Assembly: GCA_016839365.1 (NCBI GenBank)
Contig: JAEOUH010000093.1
Span: 1 to 13,460 of the forward strand
Length of the DNA stretch: 13,460 bases
Reading direction: 5' to 3'
Origin: Candidatus Hermodarchaeota archaeon
GTDB taxonomy: Archaea; Asgardarchaeota; Hermodarchaeia; Hermodarchaeales; Hermodarchaeaceae
Shown here: piece by piece, positions 1-12,795 of the stretch
Layout of the letters: each line of letters starts with the position of its first letter
Numbering within the stretch: position 1 is the stretch's first letter
Notes under the pieces: model-generated
The model's input: only the letters and a program-made list of their open reading frames with translations
What the model was told of the DNA's origin: nothing
Database searches by the model: none
Translations under genes and position numbers: made by a program

Positions 1-3000
1 GACGTTTCAACGGATTTTTCCATTACTTTACCCGTTAATTGGAATATCGCCATCAACGCTTCGTTTGGCAGTCTTACTGCAAATCCAGTTGTCTTAGATG
101 TAGAAACTGCTGACTCCACAATTGATGGCAGCCATACTATTCGAGCAGGCATGAGTTTCCAGATTACAAATTCTTGTTATTTGCACAGCGTTATGGTTCG
201 CGTTGAGGCAGGTCTATTTGATCTGCTGGACATTGTAGACGATTTGTATGTATGGATATATAATGCAACTAACGACAGCGGGCGACCTAAGCCACACATG
301 CCTTGGTCTACAAGAGTGTTCAAAAATCTGGGAGATTCGACTGACACATTCGATGGATGGATCAATGCCACTTGGGGATCCTCAGTCCTCCTGAATTCCT
401 CAACGACCTATAATGGCTATTATTTTGCTGTGTTAGTGCCCGAATCTGGAGCTACAGTGTCGTGGCAATTTCGTACAGACGCATCGAATGGTGATAATGG
501 ATATGCATGGCGAGGCACAGGATCCTGGGGAACCGACCCTATCCCCGTTGATTATTTCCTGAATGTTTCTCTGTTGCCCATGGGAGCCTCACCTAAACCA
601 AGTCAGGTTTCAATGCAGGTCAATGGTTCATCGGTGACTGATGCCCTTGGTAATGCAGGGTGGTGGACGTCCTCTTTTACAGCTTCAAGTTCTCCGACAC
701 TGTTCAATGTAACCGCAACTTGGCCAATTACCTTCGATTATACTTATATCGCCCTTTTCACCCAAATTTTGGTTGGTACAACAAACTACCAAACTGACTA
801 TCAACTTTCTCTTGCTAGCTGGAACATTACTACGTCTGTGTCTTTTCCCAATGTGAACGCAGACGCCAATAGCCGCACCATCAACTTCTCCATACCAGCA
901 CATTGGAAGATTCAAACCCTCCTGAACGGGACCACCGTGAAATCAATAACCGACTACAAAGACAACAGCACTAATCCTGGCTCACCAGGATACCTCTTCA
1001 TTGACGAGCCCACCGGTGCAGGAAACGGTACCTTATGGCGGGCGGTTTCTTCGGATCTCAATTACGTGCAAACACCTGTTATCCAACGTAGCGCACTTGA
1101 TGTTACTGGTCAACAAGTCAATATCACAGACACACTGGCGGTTTCGGCGCAAGTTTCCACATTTACCGATGGTCAAGGACGATTCAACCCCTACGATGAG
1201 CTTGGGGTTTCGCTGAACGAATGGCTGCAGACACCAGATGGGGGAGGATTACTGAACTTTACATCCTTCACCCCATCATCTTATGCCATAACGAACGTAA
1301 CCATGCGATGTGAAGTCGTATGGAGCAATAGCTTTCATGCCGGAGTCGGACTGAGTAGTGTAGATTTGTTGTATCCAACAGTGGTGACCGGCACTCCATC
1401 AGCTTACACGAGCCTCATAGGCGACATGGTCAACATTTCAGTTTACTATGAGGATACATACAACACGGCGGGTATCCCGAACGCAGAGGTTAATATCACC
1501 TTCAGCGGATCCACATATTCCCTCACCGATCGTGGAGCCGGTTATTATTGGTCACTCTTAGATACAGGGGCTATGGGACTTGGGCGGGGAGTGCACTCAG
1601 GTTCTGTGAGTGCCGACCGACTGGGCTATTCGGGCAGTTTAACCTCGGTTTCATTGACCCTCTGGTCTAAGACACAACTAGTGGCTAACTTTACATCACT
1701 GACAATTAGCTATGCGGATAGCGTCGTATTAGAAGTGAATTATTCGGTTCTAACACCGCTTGGCGAAGGTGGCATCCTTGGAGCCCAAGTCAACATTTCC
1801 GAATCGGGAATTGTCTTAAGTGCTCTGACTGAGGCGGGAGGTGGTAATTATACGGTCCTCCTTAGTGGTATGAGCCTTGACGTTGGTGTACACAATCTCA
1901 TCGTGAACGCATCAAAGCCCGGAGAACTCTATCAAAACAACACTTTGCTTGTGATCCTAACTGTAACCGGAGAACCAACCACAATTACAGGAACCGCTCC
2001 CTCAAGCGTCGATGGTGGGACCGCATTTAACGTGTCCATAGATTATCTGTTCCTAAATGGAACTGGAATTACAGGAGCCAGTATCTCCTGTCTACTAAAT
2101 GATTCACCATTCCTTGGCTTTGCGCTCTTTGATTTAGCGAATGGAACCTACAAAGCACAATTTGTGCTCAATGTGAGTGGAAGTCCAGCCACATTTAACA
2201 TTAGCTTAACGGCCTCACGAGGTGGGTTCGATGCCGCCTCCTATGATGCCTTAGTTGATGTTTTGATTCGCCCTACCACGGTTTCTGTGCAAGTGCTTTC
2301 AGCTTCACCCGTCGTATACAACGCGCCGTTTCAGATTCGAGTAACATACCAGGATATGTTGGCTGTAGGAGTTATTGGTGCTGTGGTGGATGGGAACTGG
2401 TCAACGGTGATTTCCGTTGACAATCTTGATGGCACCTATACGGTTACCTGCCAAACCACTGGAATGGCTGCGGGCTGGTGGACTATCAGTTTCAACATCA
2501 CCGTCATCAACTATGACACGCAATACTTCAGTGAAACGTTTTACCTTGTCTGGAGCACTTCCCTTACCCCCCAAGGCGGGGACTACAGTCCAACTGACTA
2601 TGAAAACGAAAACATAACTTTAGAAGTCACCTTTTGGGATTCCAGCAACAGTGTGGGGATTGCTGGGGCGACGGTTTGGACCATTTTTCAATCTGTGACC
2701 CATAACTTCCTCTCCATGGGGAGTGGAGTCTACCAACTGACATTGAATTTAACAGGTGTTACCCCCGCAACTTATCCGTTAATTGTGTATGCACAGCGAC
2801 CGAACTATGAAAACCAATCGATAGGCTTGAACTTGGGAGTTCTTGCAAAGCTCACACCTTCATTGACTGTGACCCTACCACAAGGAATTGTTGAGGGAAC
2901 TGAGGTTGCAGTAAGAGTGGATCTAACCTTTGCCAATGCCACGCCTATTACAGGCGCTACAATCAACCTGACTGTCTGGGTGGATTATCAGAATGGAACT

Positions 3001-4050
3001 ATCTTGGTTTTGTACTCACAAATAGTCACTACTGACAATCTAGGTTCACGTATTGTCATTGTTCAACTCGTGCCCTACTCCGAGGAGGAGTGGGGCAGCG
3101 GGACCTTTGAGCCCTACCTTTGGGCATCAGCAGACTTCGCGGGTACCCGTGCCCTGGCGGGATCAACAGATGTTACCTCTGAGCCGATTTCACCACGGTT
3201 CAATCCCTGGCCGTGGTGGGTTTATCTACTCGTGACTCTTCTACCTTTCATCGTCATCTTCATCTTCATAATTATAATCAGTTGGGCATACTATGCAAAG
3301 CGGGTTAAGCCACGACGATTGGCCCAACAACAAGCCCTTGAACAAAGCGCAGGAGTCTGGGCGCAACGCATGATGGGCTTGATGAACCTGCGCGCCCTCT
3401 TCGTGACCTACTCGAAAACGGGATTACCCATTTTTACGTATGATTTCGCTGGTGGCGAGATGCCCAGTACTTTGTTATCTGGATTTCTTAGTGCTGTCAA
3501 TGCATTTTATAGCGAGCTCTCGGGTGAATTAGACCGTGAATCCCAGCTCCGTGATATCCACTACAAAGACCTGCATTTGAGCTTACGTGAAGGAAAGTAT
3601 GTTGTCAGTGTCCTCATTCTTGATTCATCACCCAGCGAGGTGTTGACCCAGTCGCTAGCAGAGTTTACCTCAAATTTTGAAGTGCGTTTTCGAAAGGATT
3701 TGGCGACCTTCGAAGGACGTATTGATGTCTTCGACGAAGCTACTGAAATTGTTGAATCAAGTTTTCATGGCGAATTGTTGCTGGCCTACGAATGTGTGAA
3801 GACACCTTCACGGGGATTTGCCCGGAAAATCTACGAGTTAGGTATTGAACTTGCCAATGAGGAAAGGCGTATTTATCTTCCTCAGCTGTTTGTGGCCGCC
3901 ATTGAAAAATATGGAGAGAAGAAGAAATTCGACATCGCCAATGCCCTTGAACAGCTTCATGAACAGGGATGTTTCGCTCCTTCAAATGCGAACACTGCTG
4001 CACAATCAGAAAAATCGGATAATTCAAGTGACCCCTCCGTATTTTTCTAA
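1..4050 (+). CDS. Large single-pass cell-surface glycoprotein (5'-partial): extracellular Ig-like repeats, TM helix, cytoplasmic longin/roadblock-like domain and probable C-terminal winged helix
   Basis: Frame 1 has no stop from base 1 to the ATG at 151, so the gene starts upstream of the window. The ectodomain is S/T/N/G-rich with >30 NxS/T sequons. A hydrophobic stretch WWVYLLVTLLPFIVIFIFIIIISWAYY (~3214-3294) is followed by basic KRVKPRR. The tail LFVTYSKTGLPIF..LLSGFLSAVNAFYSEL..FEVRF..FEGRIDVF matches the pattern of Asgard longin-like domains. Confidence 0.85.
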   Translation, partial: DVSTDFSITLPVNWNIAINASFGSLTANPVVLDVETADSTIDGSHTIRAGMSFQITNSCYLHSVMVRVEAGLFDLLDIVDDLYVWIYNATNDSGRPKPHMPWSTRVFKNLGDSTDTFDGWINATWGSSVLLNSSTTYNGYYFAVLVPESGATVSWQFRTDASNGDNGYAWRGTGSWGTDPIPVDYFLNVSLLPMGASPKPSQVSMQVNGSSVTDALGNAGWWTSSFTASSSPTLFNVTATWPITFDYTYIALFTQILVGTTNYQTDYQLSLASWNITTSVSFPNVNADANSRTINFSIPAHWKIQTLLNGTTVKSITDYKDNSTNPGSPGYLFIDEPTGAGNGTLWRAVSSDLNYVQTPVIQRSALDVTGQQVNITDTLAVSAQVSTFTDGQGRFNPYDELGVSLNEWLQTPDGGGLLNFTSFTPSSYAITNVTMRCEVVWSNSFHAGVGLSSVDLLYPTVVTGTPSAYTSLIGDMVNISVYYEDTYNTAGIPNAEVNITFSGSTYSLTDRGAGYYWSLLDTGAMGLGRGVHSGSVSADRLGYSGSLTSVSLTLWSKTQLVANFTSLTISYADSVVLEVNYSVLTPLGEGGILGAQVNISESGIVLSALTEAGGGNYTVLLSGMSLDVGVHNLIVNASKPGELYQNNTLLVILTVTGEPTTITGTAPSSVDGGTAFNVSIDYLFLNGTGITGASISCLLNDSPFLGFALFDLANGTYKAQFVLNVSGSPATFNISLTASRGGFDAASYDALVDVLIRPTTVSVQVLSASPVVYNAPFQIRVTYQDMLAVGVIGAVVDGNWSTVISVDNLDGTYTVTCQTTGMAAGWWTISFNITVINYDTQYFSETFYLVWSTSLTPQGGDYSPTDYENENITLEVTFWDSSNSVGIAGATVWTIFQSVTHNFLSMGSGVYQLTLNLTGVTPATYPLIVYAQRPNYENQSIGLNLGVLAKLTPSLTVTLPQGIVEGTEVAVRVDLTFANATPITGATINLTVWVDYQNGTILVLYSQIVTTDNLGSRIVIVQLVPYSEEEWGSGTFEPYLWASADFAGTRALAGSTDVTSEPISPRFNPWPWWVYLLVTLLPFIVIFIFIIIISWAYYAKRVKPRRLAQQQALEQSAGVWAQRMMGLMNLRALFVTYSKTGLPIFTYDFAGGEMPSTLLSGFLSAVNAFYSELSGELDRESQLRDIHYKDLHLSLREGKYVVSVLILDSSPSEVLTQSLAEFTSNFEVRFRKDLATFEGRIDVFDEATEIVESSFHGELLLAYECVKTPSRGFARKIYELGIELANEERRIYLPQLFVAAIEKYGEKKKFDIANALEQLHEQGCFAPSNANTAAQSEKSDNSSDPSVFF
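1372..3190 (+). repeat. About six degenerate tandem ~95-100 aa Ig-like repeats (protein-level repeat)
   Basis: Recurring motif G/P-I/V-x-G/N-A-x-V/I ... GxY: GIPNAEV..GAGYY, GILGAQV..GGGNY, GITGASI..ANGTY, GVIGAVV..LDGTY, GIAGATV..GSGVY, PITGATI. Boundaries are approximate. Confidence 0.7.
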
Positions 4051-4132: not shown

Positions 4133-4918
4133 ATGAATGGAGTAGGAACCCGTATGTTTCAGAAGCGATCCACAGCCGCAAAAGTAGCAATTCTCGATAT
4201 CCAAGACGGGGATTTGATAGCCAACGATCAGGGGAACGTAGTGGGTGTTGAGACGTTTCTTGGTCCAGTGAGCCGAGTCAACATTATTGCCACTGTTGTG
4301 GACCGATATCAGGCCACACAGGACCGTCTGAATGAAGAAGGAAAGGGATTTGCAACGATTACCCTAGATGATGGAACTGGAGTAATTCGGGCAAAAATGT
4401 GGGGAGAGCTAGCAGCTACACTAGCGGACATTAAGATTGGCGATTTGGTCTTAGTGGTTGGCCGGATTCGCAGTTTTCAGGACGAAACCTACATCAATGG
4501 CGAACTAATTCGACGATTAGAGGACCCAAACTGGGAAATGGTTCGACTCTTGGAACTGAGGCGGTCACGGATTAACCCCCATCGACTACAGGGGCAGGTT
4601 AGTACCGCATCCCCGATCACGATGATTGATGAAAGCCCCCCTGAAGCTGGGAGGCAAAAAGATTTGGAGCCGGGTGTATGGCACACGGCGACAGCCACAT
4701 TAGAAGAACCTGATGATTCGATGACTCCAACGCCGGAACTTCGCCGAATTGTACTGGATACTATCCAAAAGTATGATGCTGATGGTGGAGCCCGGTTTGA
4801 ACAAATCCTCGATGTAACCGGTGATGTGAACGAGGAAGTAGTTGAACAGGTGCTCATTGACCTGCTCAGCGAAGGCGAAGTGTATGAGCCAGAAATCCAC
4901 CGATACAAGAAATCCTGA
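4133..4918 (+). CDS. rpa2: Replication protein A RPA2/RPA32-like subunit (OB fold, linker, C-terminal winged helix)
   Basis: OB-fold motifs SRVNIIATVV, TLDDGTGVIRAKMW and GDLVLVVGRIRSF, then DPNWE. The C-terminal LLSEGEVYEP..HRYK is typical of the RPA32 winged helix. ATG 4154 is an alternative start. Confidence 0.8.
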   Translation: MNGVGTRMFQKRSTAAKVAILDIQDGDLIANDQGNVVGVETFLGPVSRVNIIATVVDRYQATQDRLNEEGKGFATITLDDGTGVIRAKMWGELAATLADIKIGDLVLVVGRIRSFQDETYINGELIRRLEDPNWEMVRLLELRRSRINPHRLQGQVSTASPITMIDESPPEAGRQKDLEPGVWHTATATLEEPDDSMTPTPELRRIVLDTIQKYDADGGARFEQILDVTGDVNEEVVEQVLIDLLSEGEVYEPEIHRYKKS

Positions 4919-5080
4919 AAGGAACCAAACCCTTTTGAGCGCAACTTGCGTCAACCAACTAACAGATCACTGGTCCAAACCCTTAGTGGATTCAAAATCT
5001 CGTACAACTATTTGCTAAAAACAGAGATTTTATGAAGCCACGAAGCCATGATTTGGATGCATATTGTGAGGCGAACCTAC

Positions 5081-5668
5081 GTGCCCTCGGAAACCACGAA
5101 GAAACCATCGGCAGCAAAACCCAAAACGACTAAATCAGCTAAGAAGGCTCCTAGTCCTAAAAAGACGAAAGCGAAGACTACCACAAAGATCGTCAAGCCA
5201 ACAACAGCCTCAAAGCCTAAGAGACCCCCAGTGAAACCGAAAGAACCGCTGATAGATGCCCGTATGGACGATTATGAAGCACTCTTGAAGCGTGCGCGTG
5301 ATCAAATTCCTCCAGAGGTCTTTGATCAACCGAGGTTTAGTGTCCCCAAAGTTGACTCCTTCATTCAAGGGGCACGAACCGTTGTACGGAACTTCAAAGA
5401 TCTCACAGACACGCTCCGCCGGGACCCGAAGCACCTGCTACGGTATCTCTCCCATGAACTTGCCACAGCCGGCGAAATTCGCAGTCCACAGGCCATCTTC
5501 AATGGACGATTTACCTCCCGTGTATTAGATGAGCTTATGGAGAAATATACCGAAGAGTATGTTGTCTGTCCCGTGTGTCAACGACCTGATACTGAAATGC
5601 GTCGTGAGGATCGCCTTTTAGTATTGGTCTGTAGCGCCTGTGGCGGACGAACACCGCTACGGGGCTAG
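5081..5668 (+). CDS. eif2b: Translation initiation factor 2 subunit beta (aIF2beta) with a Lys-rich N-terminal extension
   Basis: Core MDDYEALLKRA..RF..TVVRNF..LRRDPKHL..ELATAG..EYVVCPVCQRPDT..CSACG with a C2-C2 zinc ribbon. GTG 5081 is preferred because SD-like GAGGCGA lies at 5068-5074. The ORF track start is 5048 and the canonical-length start would be ATG 5264. Confidence 0.93.
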   Translation: MPSETTKKPSAAKPKTTKSAKKAPSPKKTKAKTTTKIVKPTTASKPKRPPVKPKEPLIDARMDDYEALLKRARDQIPPEVFDQPRFSVPKVDSFIQGARTVVRNFKDLTDTLRRDPKHLLRYLSHELATAGEIRSPQAIFNGRFTSRVLDELMEKYTEEYVVCPVCQRPDTEMRREDRLLVLVCSACGGRTPLRG

Positions 5669-5686
5669 CTCCGTGAAAATGGATGG

Positions 5687-5992
5687 ATGTACATGCGAGT
5701 CTATCTCAATCAAATGCACCGTCAAGGCGAATACATCGTGGCGATTTGCGATCAAAATATTCTAGGTGAATCCTTTGAAGAAGGAGACCTTTGTATCCAT
5801 GTAAGTGAGCAGTTCTATAAAGGAAGGCTAGTCACTATCGAAGAAGGAATAGCAGCCATGGAGAAAGCCACCATCGCTAATATCGTTGGCGAAAACATCG
5901 TTAATGAAGCACTGAAGGCACAGCTCATTCACGAACGAGGTATAATTCGCATCCAAAATATCCCCCATGCCCAAGTAGTTGTGACGAAATGA
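5687..5992 (+). CDS. DUF424 family protein
   Basis: VAICD..LG..F..V.E.FY.G...ATIANIVG...IPHAQ pattern, in its usual position next to aIF2beta and NMD3. Confidence 0.88.
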   Translation: MYMRVYLNQMHRQGEYIVAICDQNILGESFEEGDLCIHVSEQFYKGRLVTIEEGIAAMEKATIANIVGENIVNEALKAQLIHERGIIRIQNIPHAQVVVTK

Positions 5993-5998
5993 GATACC

Positions 5999-7093
5999 AT
6001 GACCCACCAATGTCCAAAATGCGGTAAGGCTCCGACGAAAGCCCACCCATTTGTTGACGGCTTCTGCACCACCTGTTATTTTGAGCAACATCCATTAATT
6101 GCCCTTCGCCGATCTCCAGAACCACGAATTTGTCCCCGATGTAATGCATACTTCCTCAAAAGGCAGTGGGTTCATCAAATGAATCAGACCAATGAGGAGC
6201 ATTTTCAGGAATTAATCCATGCTCTCCTCGACCCGTTACTCGCCCCTAGCCAACCTGCGTCGTTTGAAGTGCATCTCCATGAACTTCCCGAGGGACCACT
6301 CTCGAAGTTAAAAGAACTATCCGTTGAGATTATAGCACATGCCAATGATTTCACATATACCGAGCAAAAAGACATCGCGATTCCAGTTAGTTTTACTCTC
6401 TGTAACCAGTGTCAGCAAACAGCGGGAGGGTATTTTGAAGCGGTATTACAGATCCGTTCTGCAACTGGAAAAATCGCACCTGAGCGAATCGACCAGATTG
6501 TAGAATTTGTCAATCAACGGCTTCTTGCCCAAAACCTACCTTCATCAACATTGAAACTGTCTGAGACTCGAGGGGGATTTGATATCAAATGCACTTCAGG
6601 TCGGATTTGTCGATTTCTTGCAAAGAATTTAGCCGAACAGTTTGGGCTAACTCAAAAAGTAGCTACCAAAGTGGTTGGACGAACCCGTGATGGGAAAAAC
6701 CTTCAGCGTGACACCTACTCACTCCGATTTCCCCTAATCCAAGTGGGAGATATGATCGCCTACAAGGAAAACCCGTTTTTAGTCACCGGACTCAGAAATG
6801 GTCGCTACATACTCACAAATGTGGAATCGTCCCATCGAGAAAGCTTGAGCCCAAAGGAGTTGAGCGAAATCGATGTCGAGTTTCTCAACGACGAAATCCA
6901 AACCTTTCAGGTTATCTCTGTGGAAGGGGATGTCGTTCAGTTGATGAGCCATGAGGATTATTCGCTCTATGATATTCCACGACCTAACCGAGAAATGATA
7001 ATTGGTTCCCTAGTATCTGCCATTGAATGGAAAAACCGAATCGTCCTCATAGCCGAGGATGAGGATTGGGCGGTCGAAAAAGGCAGCGAGTGA
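5999..7093 (+). CDS. nmd3: NMD3 family ribosome biogenesis protein
   Basis: Four CxxC pairs (CPKC, CTTC, CPRC, CNQC), GYFEAVLQIR, GGFDI, KVVGRTRDGK, and an eIF5A-like C-terminal region (QVISVEGDVVQLM). Confidence 0.92.
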   Translation: MTHQCPKCGKAPTKAHPFVDGFCTTCYFEQHPLIALRRSPEPRICPRCNAYFLKRQWVHQMNQTNEEHFQELIHALLDPLLAPSQPASFEVHLHELPEGPLSKLKELSVEIIAHANDFTYTEQKDIAIPVSFTLCNQCQQTAGGYFEAVLQIRSATGKIAPERIDQIVEFVNQRLLAQNLPSSTLKLSETRGGFDIKCTSGRICRFLAKNLAEQFGLTQKVATKVVGRTRDGKNLQRDTYSLRFPLIQVGDMIAYKENPFLVTGLRNGRYILTNVESSHRESLSPKELSEIDVEFLNDEIQTFQVISVEGDVVQLMSHEDYSLYDIPRPNREMIIGSLVSAIEWKNRIVLIAEDEDWAVEKGSE

Positions 7094-7096
7094 GCA

Positions 7097-7132
7097 GTTT
7101 TATATAGATGGCTTCCCGTTGTAGCCCATCTA
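7097..7132 (+). promoter_or_regulatory. Putative TATA box of aIF1A followed by an inverted repeat
   Basis: TTTTATATAG at 7098-7107 lies upstream of SD-like GGAG and ATG 7149. Inverted repeat TAGATGG (7105-7111) / CCATCTA (7126-7132). Confidence 0.5.
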
Positions 7133-7148
7133 GTCTTGGAGTATTATA

Positions 7149-7499
7149 ATGTCGAAACCTAAACGAAAAGGAAAAGGCAGAGGGGGTCGCAGCCTTAAAG
7201 GCCAGTCCCGCCAAGACGGGGAAGTCATTCGTGTCCGGATCCCCCGTGAAGGCGAAGTCCTCGGTATTGCTGTCCAATTGCTCGGCTATGATCGAGTCCG
7301 CGTTAAATGCGCTGATGGAAAAGCACGACTCTGCCGGATTCGTGGAACCTTGAAGAAACGCGTTTGGATACGTGAAAATGATGTCGTTCTCGTCGCACCG
7401 TGGGATTTCCAAACTGATCAACGTGGTGATATCATTTGGCGATACTCCCAGGGTGAAGCTGGGTGGCTGGAGCGACGGGGTTACCTGAAAATTGAATAA
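7149..7499 (+). CDS. eif1a: Translation initiation factor 1A (aIF1A)
   Basis: [62 protein letters not shown] is the aIF1A signature. Confidence 0.96.
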
Positions 7500-7551
7500 A
7501 CTCACCTCAGCAGATTCGCTTTTTATCACCCATATGAAAAATATTACCACC

Positions 7552-8253
7552 ATGTTAGTTCTTGGACTCATCGAATCGTCGATCGAACTAGTTCCAGAGA
7601 AGCTAGCCACTGATACGGCGGTTACAGCCAGCGCCCAGTTACGTGGAAAACCTCCCAACCAAATTTTGCTTGACGAGAGCCTTCACTCAAACGCAGTTCG
7701 CACCCTTCCCGATTCTCAAAAGCGAGGCCGCCCAGATGTTGTCCATCGGTGCTTGCTTACCGCATTAGACAGTGTGTTGGCGAAATCGGGCCATCTTGAG
7801 GTATTCGTGCACACTATTACCGGAGAAATCATTCAAATAGCCACTAGCACCCGATTACCCCGTCGAACACAACGGTTTGTTGGTCTCATGGAACAATTAC
7901 TATTGCATAAACGGGTTCCCCTAGAAGGCGACCCATTACTCCAAATAGTTCCAGGAAACCTAGAAATGTACCTCAGATCTATCGTCCCAAGCCAAACGTT
8001 TCTGCTTTCATTAGAGGGAACGCCTATGTCACCAACACGTTTAGCAAAGACCCTCGTAAAGGAAACAAAACCCGTGGTGCTTATGGGGGGATTTGCACAC
8101 GGGGAAGTGAATCCAAGAGTATTGGAGCTTGTTGATCAGCAGATCAGTATTGATCCAGAACTCCTTGCCGCTTCTACTGTTGTGGGTATGATAGTGCACA
8201 GTATCGAAGCAGTACTTGACCTGAGTGCACATCGGTTCAGTGATGCGAAATGA
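7552..8253 (+). CDS. nep1: 16S rRNA pseudouridine N1-methyltransferase Nep1/Emg1 (SPOUT family)
   Basis: Motifs ESSIELVP, LLDESLH, RGRPDVVHRCLL, TRLPR..RFVGLMEQLL and GGFAHG. ATG 7552 (MLVLGL) fits the usual family N-terminus and follows a TATA-like TTTTATCA at 7521-7528. The ORF track start is TTG 7492. Confidence 0.93.
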   Translation: MLVLGLIESSIELVPEKLATDTAVTASAQLRGKPPNQILLDESLHSNAVRTLPDSQKRGRPDVVHRCLLTALDSVLAKSGHLEVFVHTITGEIIQIATSTRLPRRTQRFVGLMEQLLLHKRVPLEGDPLLQIVPGNLEMYLRSIVPSQTFLLSLEGTPMSPTRLAKTLVKETKPVVLMGGFAHGEVNPRVLELVDQQISIDPELLAASTVVGMIVHSIEAVLDLSAHRFSDAK

Positions 8254-8358
8254 TACGTTTTGAAGGGAAACAACAACCTTTATCAACCGAGGATTGGCGC
8301 TACCATCCGCACCCTGAGGATTTAGTCTGAGGCCGTTGTAAAGAGGAGGTGAAAAATC

Positions 8359-9129
8359 GTGTCGAAAAAAGTTGACCGTATAGACCAACGCTTGGATAAG
8401 GCACGTATGCGTATCAAGCGCTCCGAAGACCGACAAGTCATCGAATCCGTCTTCGATACGAGAACCCTCCTGACCCTCTATCACATGTTCAATAGAGGCA
8501 TCTTAGACGAGATTAATGGGGTGATTTCAACAGGAAAAGAAGGCAACGTGTATTTGGGGGTGCAACCGGATGGTTCTGATGCCGCCATCAAAATCTATCG
8601 CATCACCACTTTTAATTTTAAACGTATCACCATGTACCTCGAAGGCGATCCACGCTTTGCACGCATCCCCCGCTCCCGCAGTGGACTCATCACCGCATGG
8701 GCATCCAAGGAATATAAGAACCTCATTCGAGCCGAGGCAGCTGGCGTACGTGTTCCGCATCCGATTCATGTCCAGCGCAACATTTTAGTCATGGAATTTA
8801 TTGGTGAAAACGGGTTGCCCGCTCCCACCATGCACCAACAGGAGCCGGAAAAGCCCGAACCCACACGTAAGGCCATCCTTCAAGCCGTTTCCCGCCTCTA
8901 CCATGAGGCCAACCTGGTACATTCGGATCTAAGTGAGTATAACATCATGCTCTGGAACGGTCCCGTTCTCATCGACATCTCACAAGCCGTCGTTTTAGAC
9001 CACCCATACAGCGAAATGTTTTTTGAACGCGATATACGCAACATAATCGCCTATTTTGATGGCTTCGATATTCCGAAACTTGATTTAGCTGATACCATCA
9101 AAGCCATTCGTGCAGGTGAGTTCAAATGA
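8359..9129 (+). CDS. rio1: RIO1 family atypical kinase/ATPase
   Basis: ISTGKEGNVY, AIKIY, WASKEYKNL, LVHSDLSEYNI and IDISQAV motifs. Strong SD GGAGGTGA at 8345-8352 precedes the GTG start. Confidence 0.96.
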   Translation: MSKKVDRIDQRLDKARMRIKRSEDRQVIESVFDTRTLLTLYHMFNRGILDEINGVISTGKEGNVYLGVQPDGSDAAIKIYRITTFNFKRITMYLEGDPRFARIPRSRSGLITAWASKEYKNLIRAEAAGVRVPHPIHVQRNILVMEFIGENGLPAPTMHQQEPEKPEPTRKAILQAVSRLYHEANLVHSDLSEYNIMLWNGPVLIDISQAVVLDHPYSEMFFERDIRNIIAYFDGFDIPKLDLADTIKAIRAGEFK

Positions 9130-9713
9130 AAGCTGACGCCCGTATCCGCATCCCCAAATCCCGGATCGCTGTTGTGATTGGTCCGAATGGGGCGGTTAAA
9201 CATGAATTGGAAAAAACTACGAAGATCTCTGTCGATATCGATAGCAGTGATGGGCTGGTTATCTTAGAATCCATGGAGGACTGTGAAGATCCCTTGGCTA
9301 TTTGGAAAGCCCGGGACATTGTCCAAGCGATTGGTCGCGGATTCAGCCCTCAACGTGCCTTCGCTCTCCTCGATGATGATATCTATTTACGGGTCATCAA
9401 TCTTGAAGAGTTTGGCAGTTCACCCAACCAGATCCGGCGCCTGAAAGGGCGCGTCATCGGTCAGGGTGGGAAAACTCGCCGCAACATCGAGGAACTCACC
9501 GACACCTACGTGGCCATCATGGGCAATACCATCAGTGTCATTGGCGAAGTCGAAAATCAACAAATTGCTGTCAACGCCATCACCCGTCTACTCCGGGGTG
9601 CCGAACACTCCACCATCAACCGGTACCTTAACACCCAGCGACGAAGCATGAAAAAGCGACGGGCTTTGGAGCTCTGGCAGCCCCTAGGTCCCGAAGATAC
9701 TGAAGCACGCTAA
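9126..9713 (+). CDS. dim2: KH-domain pre-rRNA processing protein Dim2/Pno1
   Basis: VIGPNG and VIGQGGKTR GxxG loops, AIGRGFSPQRA, and an ATGA overlap with rio1, its usual neighbour. Confidence 0.92.
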   Translation: MKADARIRIPKSRIAVVIGPNGAVKHELEKTTKISVDIDSSDGLVILESMEDCEDPLAIWKARDIVQAIGRGFSPQRAFALLDDDIYLRVINLEEFGSSPNQIRRLKGRVIGQGGKTRRNIEELTDTYVAIMGNTISVIGEVENQQIAVNAITRLLRGAEHSTINRYLNTQRRSMKKRRALELWQPLGPEDTEAR

Positions 9714-9907: not shown

Positions 9908-10354
9908 TTACCCGTACATGGCGTGCCGTTCTGGGAATCGTTTTAGACTCATCGACTGCACACACGCCTCTAATTCGCGGTCCAACGCCTCTTGTTTATC
10001 GGACATAACTGTTCGCAGTCGTGAGGTACTGTCATCGGAATAGCGCTGAAGCCCCTGGGCGATCACAATCCCCTTCTGTTGAGGGGCCGCGATTTGGAAC
10101 AGGAAAGGTTTGCCTTCCTGCATGATCTTGTTGTGAATCCCTTCATCCACACGACGGTGCGTAGTACCAACCCCAATGACTTCAAACGGATTGACCGGTT
10201 CAGTTTTCATCTGCCACAGCCGATCGCGGTGCAACACGAAGGTATCATATAATCCATGGTCTGCAGCACCGGATAATACACGCCAGCCTTGGCTCTCCTT
10301 GTCGTAGCGTTTCTTCATCTCCATGAGTAGATCGCCAATCGGCTTCATCGTCAT
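9908..10354 (-). CDS. Conserved archaeal hypothetical protein (148 aa)
   Basis: SD AGGTG precedes the ATG, with a TATA-like CTTTAAG further upstream. Motifs GWRV.SG, KT..NPFEV.GVG and Q..LD.EL recall (from memory) an uncharacterised euryarchaeal family. Confidence 0.8.
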   Translation of the reverse strand: MTMKPIGDLLMEMKKRYDKESQGWRVLSGAADHGLYDTFVLHRDRLWQMKTEPVNPFEVIGVGTTHRRVDEGIHNKIMQEGKPFLFQIAAPQQKGIVIAQGLQRYSDDSTSRLRTVMSDKQEALDRELEACVQSMSLKRFPERHAMYG

Positions 10355-10556: not shown

Positions 10557-10634
10557 TGGTGCCCTGACCGGGATTCGAACCCGGGTCCACGGGGCGAAAG
10601 CCCATGATGATTGACCTGGCTACACTATCAGGGC
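10557..10634 (-). tRNA. tRNA-Glu(TTC), encoded CCA
   Basis: Minus strand: GCCCTGA/TCAGGGC acceptor, ATGGG-CTTTCGC-CCCGT anticodon arm, CCGGG-TTCGAAT-CCCGG T arm. It is only 11 nt upstream of tRNA-Leu. Confidence 0.95.
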
Positions 10635-10713: not shown

Positions 10714-10788
10714 TGGTGGAGTGGCCGGGATTTGAACCCGGGGCCTCGGGTGTGCAAGACCCGCGATCTACCACTGATCTACCACCCC
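10714..10788 (-). tRNA. tRNA-Ala(TGC), encoded CCA
   Basis: Minus strand: acceptor GGGGTGG/CCACTCC with the G3:U70 alanine identity pair, CGGGT-CTTGCAC-ACCCG anticodon arm, CCGGG-TTCAAAT-CCCGG T arm. Confidence 0.96.
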
Positions 10789-11832: not shown

Positions 11833-12795
11833 TTAAGTGGGAGGAGTAGGTTGGGATGTTCGCCGTCGGGTCCAGATGGCTGCACCAATAACCACACAGG
11901 CTAATGCGCCAGCTCCTACCACGATGAGGGTGAGCAGAAGGCTGTCAGGTGGGAGTACAGATCCGTCAAGTCCGATGACAGGATCATGGACAAGCACGTC
12001 ATCACCGAAATTCGGATAGACCAGGTAGAACACGGTCTTCTCTGGAGCACAGTCGTAGTTACTGGTCACTTCGATGGTGTCATTACCCGCATTGGCAGAG
12101 TGTTGATAGGCGAAGAAGGCACCATCAAAGGCAAAGGTATGGTTTTCGTAGCGGTATTGGTAGGCATGTCGATAGGTATGAGTGCCAGGGCTTTGAACCA
12201 TCAGGTCCCATCGGAGGGCAAGATAGGTATCATCATGCGCCCATGGCCAACCAGAGATCACGATGTCAAATTTAAGCTCGTTACTATTTGTGACGTTGAT
12301 GTGGCAGCGTAGTTCCATGTAGAGGTCGTCGAACTCTGGACGGGGGCCTTGGACGGATTCGAGGGTGAAGTTGAAGTGTACAGCCGTTGTTTCGCCGTCG
12401 GTTTCTTCGGTGAGAAATCCGCTAAAGTCCCATGAAACGCTACCTAGTCCCAGTATGGGAGCCACAACGTGGTCGGTTCCATTGGTGTAGGTTCCATCAT
12501 CGTTGGTGTCGTTGAATTCGATGAGCTGGTGGAATTGGACGTGGTAGGTCAGACGGGTATTGGGATCAACAAAGTTGGGGTCCCAGAACATGAAGTGGGG
12601 CACGTTGCCACCTGTGGAGACCCGGACGTTGATCGCTGGTGTAGTGAGAGTCACTTGCCGGTTACCCGCATCATACTGATACCCCAGTCCTTGCGCGGAG
12701 GTGAGGCCGGCGAAGGAGAGGCTGGAGAGCATGATGACGCTGAGTGCGATTGCGATGAGTGCAAGTCTGGACCGTTGGAGTGTCACAGTGGTCAT
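11833..12795 (-). CDS. Secreted beta-rich protein with a signal peptide and a C-terminal membrane anchor
   Basis: N-terminal hydrophobic signal (RSRLALIAIALSVIMLSSLSFAGLTSA), several NxT sequons, and C-terminal TM LLLTLIVVGAGALACVVIGAAIW followed by RRR. Confidence 0.85.
   Translation of the reverse strand: MTTVTLQRSRLALIAIALSVIMLSSLSFAGLTSAQGLGYQYDAGNRQVTLTTPAINVRVSTGGNVPHFMFWDPNFVDPNTRLTYHVQFHQLIEFNDTNDDGTYTNGTDHVVAPILGLGSVSWDFSGFLTEETDGETTAVHFNFTLESVQGPRPEFDDLYMELRCHINVTNSNELKFDIVISGWPWAHDDTYLALRWDLMVQSPGTHTYRHAYQYRYENHTFAFDGAFFAYQHSANAGNDTIEVTSNYDCAPEKTVFYLVYPNFGDDVLVHDPVIGLDGSVLPPDSLLLTLIVVGAGALACVVIGAAIWTRRRTSQPTPPT

Follow-up and report, generated by a model that had tools for sequence, protein, structure and literature searches.

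A predicted Asgard archaeal surface protein with an adhesin-like ectodomain and a cytoplasmic tail of longin and winged-helix domains

The DNA considered here, referred to as the window, is an entire contig of 13,460 bases (C83; JAEOUH010000093.1) from the 2.2-Mb, 84% complete genome of a Candidatus Hermodarchaeota archaeon (GCA_016839365.1; G000). Its first 4,050 bases (1..4050, + strand) hold an open reading frame (ORF) that runs off the 5′ end and encodes 1349 amino acids (aa) of a ~1427-aa type I membrane protein. A preliminary description of the window had seen in this ORF a large ectodomain with tandem immunoglobulin (Ig)-like repeats, one transmembrane (TM) helix, and a cytoplasmic part with a longin-like domain and a winged-helix-like module, and had suggested a contact receptor that signals to a GTPase module. 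Computational analysis establishes the architecture, the folds, and the topology of this protein. The 78 missing N-terminal residues were recovered from contig C77, whose reverse complement shares 127 identical bases with the start of the window; they have a GTG start and include a basic-then-hydrophobic, signal-like segment. The join is backed by synteny, with the same gene order across it in relatives, and the completed protein agrees in length with a full-length orthologue (P0002, 1425 aa). Close homologues carry the labels Promethearchaeota or Candidatus Hermodarchaeota. An artefactual fusion can be rejected because many independent assemblies share the architecture.

Hydropathy and motif counts give the protein the features of a surface protein: an N-terminal signal, a single C-terminal TM helix, and N-x-S/T sequons. 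The TM helix (aa 1073–1097; 3217..3291, +) has a Kyte-Doolittle peak of 3.18, as against 1.51 or less for every other segment of the 1349-aa ORF, and is followed by a basic stop-transfer stretch, KRVKPRR. There are 38 sequons before this helix and one after it; 5000 shuffles of the composition average 14.7 ± 3.2 and never exceed 28. A TM helix lies directly ahead of the tail in 148 of the 150 homologues having sequence there. Across homologues, lysines and arginines average 5.2 past the helix versus 0.8 ahead of it, and sequon density is 3.8 per 100 residues outside versus 0.5 in the tail. Given the TM position, the charge asymmetry, and the sequon densities in the 150 homologues, the tail is predicted to be cytoplasmic; the division into ectodomain, single helix, and cytoplasmic part made in the preliminary description stands. 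The genome also has a gene for the STT3/AglB oligosaccharyltransferase, and the ectodomain is presumably N-glycosylated. At its locus (L004, contig C27 of the same genome), a soluble longin and winged-helix gene lies head to head with this STT3/AglB match (4815–5762, −; 6437–7696, +).

The ectodomain has three parts. First, a beta-rich, variable head (aa 28–196; 82..588, +) is shared with the paralogue on contig C21, and its only matches are Asgard-labelled or unlabelled proteins. An atlas feature score of 0.83 for Lectin_like (PF18560) is a weak lead only, and Pfam HMMs give the head no match, including none to PF18560. Second, a beta-rich neck (aa 197–455; 589..1365, +) opens with a PS-x-x-x-x-x-NG motif that recurs among family members. 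Third, self-similarity reveals six tandem repeats of ~98 aa (aa 456–1037; 1366..3111, +), which are mutually similar in pairwise phmmer comparisons (E down to 4e-8). The repeats seen earlier are therefore genuine, and their Ig fold is less firm: it rests on a match to Invasin_D3 below the cut-off (E 0.022) and on homologues, of which 5 of 32 have Big_1 and some have MG (MG4) domains. The six repeats are probably bacterial-type Ig-like domains that form a stalk. A 2310-aa protein encoded elsewhere in the genome (L009:5543–12472; C46:67542–74471) has nine stalk-like repeats, with an Invasin_D3 match at E 1e-8, and no detectable longin tail.

What is the cytoplasmic tail? An AlphaFold2 model built with 150 homologues (predicted local distance difference test score, pLDDT, 89.7) shows a 26-residue helix, a longin domain, and then a small helical domain. 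The longin domain (aa 1130–1260; 3388..3780, +), which the preliminary description had placed at ~3388–3765, has the order β-β-α-β-β-β-α-α (E31–38 E44–49 H57–74 E87–89 E92–98 E102–108 H114–130 H143–155 in the model), with a C-terminal helix replacing the N-terminal helix of roadblock domains. The top match in an exhaustive structural search is Fuzzy of CPLANE (7q3d_C; Z 12.6, root-mean-square deviation [rmsd] 3.0, 125 residues aligned), and further longin matches include Sec22b (Z 12.5), synbindin (11.7), and a Lokiarchaeal longin (10.8). Nearly all of the 53 chains at Z ≥ 8 are longin or roadblock domains, the roadblocks scoring lower (Z ≤ 10.1). Foldseek on the tail gave sigma-adaptin (E 6e-5, the best match), TRAPP (E 4e-4), and COP subunits, and a viral fold library contributed only viral longin SNAREs. 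The structural matches are longins, not profilins. The tail has both the fold and the predicted side of the membrane first proposed for it, and neither of the two outcomes that the preliminary description named as refuting its reading was observed. Sequence searches of the tail against Pfam, NCBIfam, and, by profile, PDB gave nothing usable, and the Pfam family Robl_LC7 touched only 7 of 150 members.

Among orthologues, the longin is the best-conserved part of the protein (78%, against 52%–62% for head, neck, and stalk). Its most conserved element is α1 (L1158, G1161, F1162, A1165, F1169), in which L-x-x-G-F-x-x-A-x-x-x-F is kept at 97%–100% across ~25%-identical homologues. In longins of GTPase-activating proteins (GAPs), the arginine finger is located in the β4-β5 loop. 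In this family, the β4-β5 turn is short and of fixed length in all 150 members, and has an arginine in only 7. GAP longins are recognized by a GP motif at the start of β2 (PMC12290439); none of the 150 has it there, and K-x-x-G-x-[C/P/S/A] stands in its place. An arginine-finger GAP is therefore unlikely and was rejected. A SNARE identity was also rejected, with the TM helix ahead of the longin, a winged helix after it, and the chain then ending. A homodimer prediction for the tail gave no answer (score 0.00) and is counted neither way.

The module that follows the longin, ending IANALEQLHEQGCFAP, had been said to resemble a winged helix, and this is supported by its own AlphaFold model and by structural matches (aa 1262–1327; 3784..3981, +). 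Folded alone (pLDDT 93.3; E2–5 H13–24 H33–44 H46–61 E65–67), it is a three-helix bundle with a small beta sheet that includes an N-terminal strand and a short wing, and its matches are mostly winged helices. The best is the lantibiotic dehydratase TbtB (Z 7.7, rmsd 2.2, 70 aligned); others are methionine aminopeptidase, the MCM C-terminus, RPA32C, and cullin WHB. The winged helices of lantibiotic dehydratase, RPA32C, the MCM C-terminus, and cullin WHB are mostly peptide- or protein-binding. Because these Z scores are middling, the matches settle the fold class but not a function. Foldseek alone found no significant match for this domain, and its profile showed no similarity to those of three soluble longin paralogues, a weak test because these were single sequences. 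The fold raises the question of whether the protein is a membrane-tethered transcription regulator, with the winged helix binding DNA at the membrane or after proteolysis and the longin regulating or dimerizing. Some of the matches bind DNA (SAMD1, MecI, histone H1), and soluble Asgard look-alikes of the tail include clusters with TrmB or HTH_47. However, the presumed recognition helix has no conserved basic residues save one at its end (His here), the net charge of the domain is about +1.5 with no conserved basic face, the wing is short, none of 75 members has a Pfam helix-turn-helix (HTH) match, and the winged helix is less conserved among orthologues (64%) than the longin (78%). A role in transcription is improbable. 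The C-terminal end that follows, including the stop codon (3985..4050, +), is weakly conserved, with 27% mean identity among orthologues.

Between the membrane and the longin lies a juxtamembrane cytoplasmic helix of 26 residues (aa 1104–1129; 3310..3387, +), delimited from the AlphaFold2 model and from homologue lengths. The distance from a proline to a glycine over this helix is 33 residues in 93 sequences, 32 in 16, and 37 in 6; the last group includes the gene under study, in which a 4-residue insertion adds about one turn. This near-fixed length suggests that the position or register of the helix matters. Two residues that are conserved in the family differ here. An aspartate at aa 1126 (window 3376–3378), 91% conserved family-wide, is Gly, and an arginine at aa 1202 (window 3604–3606), inside β5 and conserved in 130 of 150 homologues (87%), is Val; 10 of the 150 homologues have neither. 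Possibly, a salt bridge from the linker helix to the longin sheet has been lost at these positions.

Is the protein an outside-in receptor? In such a receptor, a ligand or contact at the head would alter clustering or helix register and so activate a tail that acts toward a GTPase like a guanine nucleotide exchange factor (GEF). The juxtamembrane helix, which at most has lost one residue or gained one turn, is consistent with this, as is the sharing of one conserved output module by varied heads. A gene for a roadblock-Ras fusion is also found close to a Loki-type member, two genes away, in two genomes that belong to one family; this is a single event, however, and concerns a different subfamily. 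The genes in question are Rab-like (L054:1687–2793, −; L038:13466–14662, +) and the member is ~1570 aa; the gene in L054 is the fusion according to Pfam. Conservation among orthologues is 58% for the TM helix and 42% for the stem ahead of it, with 52%–62% for the head, neck, and stalk, and the poor conservation of helix and stem does not favor a tuned signal relay, although the length of the linker helix is fixed. GxxxG motifs are found in the TM helix of 25 of 110 homologues and not in the gene under study, a long six-repeat stalk separates the head from the membrane, and there is no known ligand. Outside-in signaling is a doubtful proposition, and the signaling across the membrane to a GTPase module that was suggested earlier is putative. 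The GAP-type longin signatures are absent as well.

The gene under study is one ordinary member of a family, and the interest belongs to the family as a whole. Four TM-longin-winged-helix proteins are encoded in the genome, on C83, C29, C62, and C21. The tail profile matches 4155 clusters at 50% identity, 1121 of them at E ≤ 1e-10, and 137 of 151 Asgard genomes at E ≤ 1e-15; soluble longins are among the proteins counted, so that the figures do not give numbers of receptors. The restriction to Asgard archaea rests on source names and atlas taxa, non-Asgard genomes not having been searched directly. Among the best tail matches, ectodomains range from ~530 to 2500 residues, and like tails bear Big_1, MG, FG-GAP propeller, or WD40 propeller ectodomains. 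The longin and winged-helix module is also found on soluble proteins, and a related longin alone is found on polytopic membrane proteins. Because it occurs on diverse ectodomains, on HEAT-repeat and other soluble proteins, and on polytopic membrane proteins, the tail behaves as a portable module. Many Loki-type members extend past the winged helix with a helical or TPR-like segment.

Several of these relatives deserve mention in their own right. A soluble HEAT/PC-repeat protein ends in the longin and winged-helix module (L044:5128–7137, −). A soluble form of ~460 aa is conserved in one Asgard family (L051:3595–4992, L052:2435–3814, L053:3285–4664), with a short Cys-containing N-terminus, a linker helix, a longin, a winged helix, and a TPR-like end; at these three loci, it is not directly downstream of a surface-protein gene. 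The polytopic proteins (L041:6734–8950, L042:6887–9112, L043:6651–8810) have 10–12 predicted TM helices and a related longin at the end, and Pfam gives them no match. Some 2 kb upstream of the L041 and L042 genes, a small GTPase is encoded on the opposite strand.

A tail of this kind could also serve a structural purpose, as an envelope scaffold or sorting tag without GTPase regulation. The tails would oligomerize or bind a coat-like or cytoskeletal partner, and the glycoproteins would be arrayed as an irregular, non-crystalline surface layer, with the longins of VAMP7 and Sec22b as precedents for sorting determinants. Indeed, Sec22b, VAMP7, and adaptor sigma/mu subunits are among the top structural matches, the TPR-like extensions of Loki-type members suit scaffolding, and cultured Asgard cells have no ordered surface layer and many surface proteins (PMC9834061; 10.1101/2025.07.22.663070). 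There is also an actin-like gene ~1 kb 3′ of the C21 paralogue, separated from it by one small gene (L003:10577–11623; C21:30576–31622; identified by eye from an N-terminal motif). However, the 2310-aa nine-repeat protein does without the tail, so the tail is not required by every surface protein; the structural matches are to longins and not to profilins; and no coat partner has been identified. A scaffold or sorting tag is an unlikely explanation, on a par with the outside-in receptor.

The reading that we prefer, and that we regard as about evenly balanced between right and wrong, is that the protein is an adhesin-like glycoprotein of the cell surface whose own longin serves as a non-catalytic platform, linking it in one direction or the other to the machinery of small GTPases; the outside-in receptor is a sub-case. 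All of the partners, and the signaling step itself, are ones we infer. Longin and roadblock dimers are known GTPase platforms (PMC10933270), and the central helix region of such proteins makes the dimer on which small GTPases dock (PMC10933270). About 18 ORFs of the genome encode Ras-like GTPases, and more than a dozen encode further longins. By sequence and prediction, the variable head is held outward on the six-repeat stalk, one helix crosses the membrane, and the fixed-length helix keeps the longin and winged helix just beneath it. In the proposed mechanism, the conserved α1 may pair with another longin or roadblock domain, whether that of a soluble longin or of a paralogous tail, may bind one of the small GTPases of the cell, or may do both. 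The tail would then be a GEF-like or effector platform and not a GAP with an arginine finger; the winged helix may bind another protein. The position, clustering, or turnover of a surface adhesin would thereby be tied to GTPase switches and membrane remodelling. Inside-out placement of this kind is at least as likely as outside-in signaling, and the role of adhesion or contact receptor named in the preliminary description remains a putative one.

There are several points against this coupling to GTPases. First, the ligands of many longins, such as sigma-adaptins and longin SNAREs, are coats or cargo and not GTPases. Second, a fold shared at 10%–15% identity shows no function. Third, the conservation of α1 could partly reflect packing of the structural core. 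Fourth, the binding partner that a GTPase platform would need is predicted rather than demonstrated. Fifth, no GTPase or longin gene adjoins any of the four paralogues in the genome; their neighbors are housekeeping genes, conserved only within the genus. Sixth, non-GTPase roles of longins have been noted (PMC10933270). Among the points in its favor, by contrast, is that Asgard GTPase genes generally lie outside the operons of their regulators and longins (PMC10933270).

What are the implications? Asgard genomes encode dozens of longins and small GTPases, yet an internal membrane system is scarcely seen in cultured cells, or not seen at all, and the partners of these longins and GTPases are not readable from gene order (PMC10933270). 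A longin fixed beneath a large surface protein is a concrete site where GTPase machinery could meet the outside world. A bolder, rather improbable version is that the family consists of Asgard-wide, multi-paralogue, kinase-free surface receptors whose diverse heads directly control small GTPases through a fused longin. If so, such receptors would be a prokaryotic forerunner of contact-triggered GTPase signaling and membrane remodelling, and could account for what some of the many orphan longins and GTPases of Asgard archaea do where partner cells make contact. Many family members are found in relatives of cultured Lokiarchaeia, and the family nominates genes for surface structures that are unexplained in cryo-tomography.

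In the rest of the window, a housekeeping run 3′ of the surface-protein gene (4133–9713, +), its order kept within the genus, includes, by Pfam, RPA2-like (OB fold and C-terminal winged helix), eIF2-beta, DUF424, and NMD3 genes and continues with eIF1A, Nep1, Rio1, and Dim2, identified by eye. Beyond it are a 148-aa ORF with 80%–86% identity in relatives and no Pfam match (9908–10354, −), tRNA-Glu(TTC) (10557–10634, −), tRNA-Ala(TGC) (10714–10788, −), and a genus-conserved gene for a secreted single-pass protein (11833–12795, −) with a weak match, below the cut-off (E 0.029), to NCU-G1/GLMP, a eukaryotic lysosomal family.

How does the family compare with known systems? Asgard longin expansions, NPRL2-like fusions, multidomain proteins that combine longin, HTH, TPR, and Ig-like domains, and adhesin-like surface proteins are already published. 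The single-pass form with ectodomain, TM helix, longin, and winged helix was not described in the literature searched, in keeping with its being called uncharacterised; that search did not extend to Klinger et al. 2016 or, for Liu et al. 2021, to the journal article with its supplements, and a mention there is possible. On the outer side, the adhesin-like proteins of Nerearchaeum marumarumayae (10.1101/2025.07.22.663070) and archaeal Big_1 adhesin-like proteins are alike in having a signal, beta-sandwich repeats, a single TM helix, and sometimes a propeller head, but the portions of the source consulted mention no cytoplasmic longin and winged-helix tail. Asgard multidomain longins with Vps28-C, adaptin appendage, TPR, Ig-like, or HTH/PCI domains, proposed to act on small GTPases, likewise join a longin to HTH, TPR, or Ig-like domains (Makarova et al. 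2024, PMC11188069). They differ in being defined by ESCRT-related domains and in being patchy, with no single-pass, large-ectodomain form in the text. The same paper states that the additional ESCRT families are all absent from Hermodarchaeia (PMC11188069).

On the inner side, the small C-terminal domain of NPRL2 is a winged helix. NPRL2 and NPRL3 of GATOR1, FLCN, SMCR8, and Asgard NPRL2-like proteins have, as here, a longin followed by a small C-terminal domain (10.1101/2020.10.19.343400; PMC12290439). The tail has no NPR2 Pfam match, and NPRL2 and NPRL3 are not among the fold matches listed, which does not exclude homology to NPRL2. GAP longins differ from the family, which lacks the GP motif, has a tight turn without the arginine, and adds a membrane anchor and ectodomain. 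TRAPP Bet5/Trs23 (3cue), Mon1-Ccz1 (5ldd), Fuzzy-Inturned of CPLANE (7q3d), and the SRX domain of SRalpha (1nrj) share the longin fold over ~120–130 residues (Z 10–12.6), but are soluble complex subunits of 6%–15% identity, and in none of them is a TM helix with a large, glycosylated ectodomain attached. In TRAPP, Mon1-Ccz1, and Fuzzy-Inturned, a longin dimer binds a GTPase and changes its nucleotide state, whereas the present tail is known from its sequence and predicted fold alone. Sec22b, VAMP7, Ykt6, and adaptor sigma/mu/zeta subunits have equal structural scores (Z 11–12.5). Longin SNAREs begin with the longin, and the SNARE motif and tail anchor come after it. Sec22b and VAMP7 resemble the family in being membrane-anchored cytoplasmic longins, but here the longin stands between the TM helix and a winged helix, and a SNARE motif is absent.

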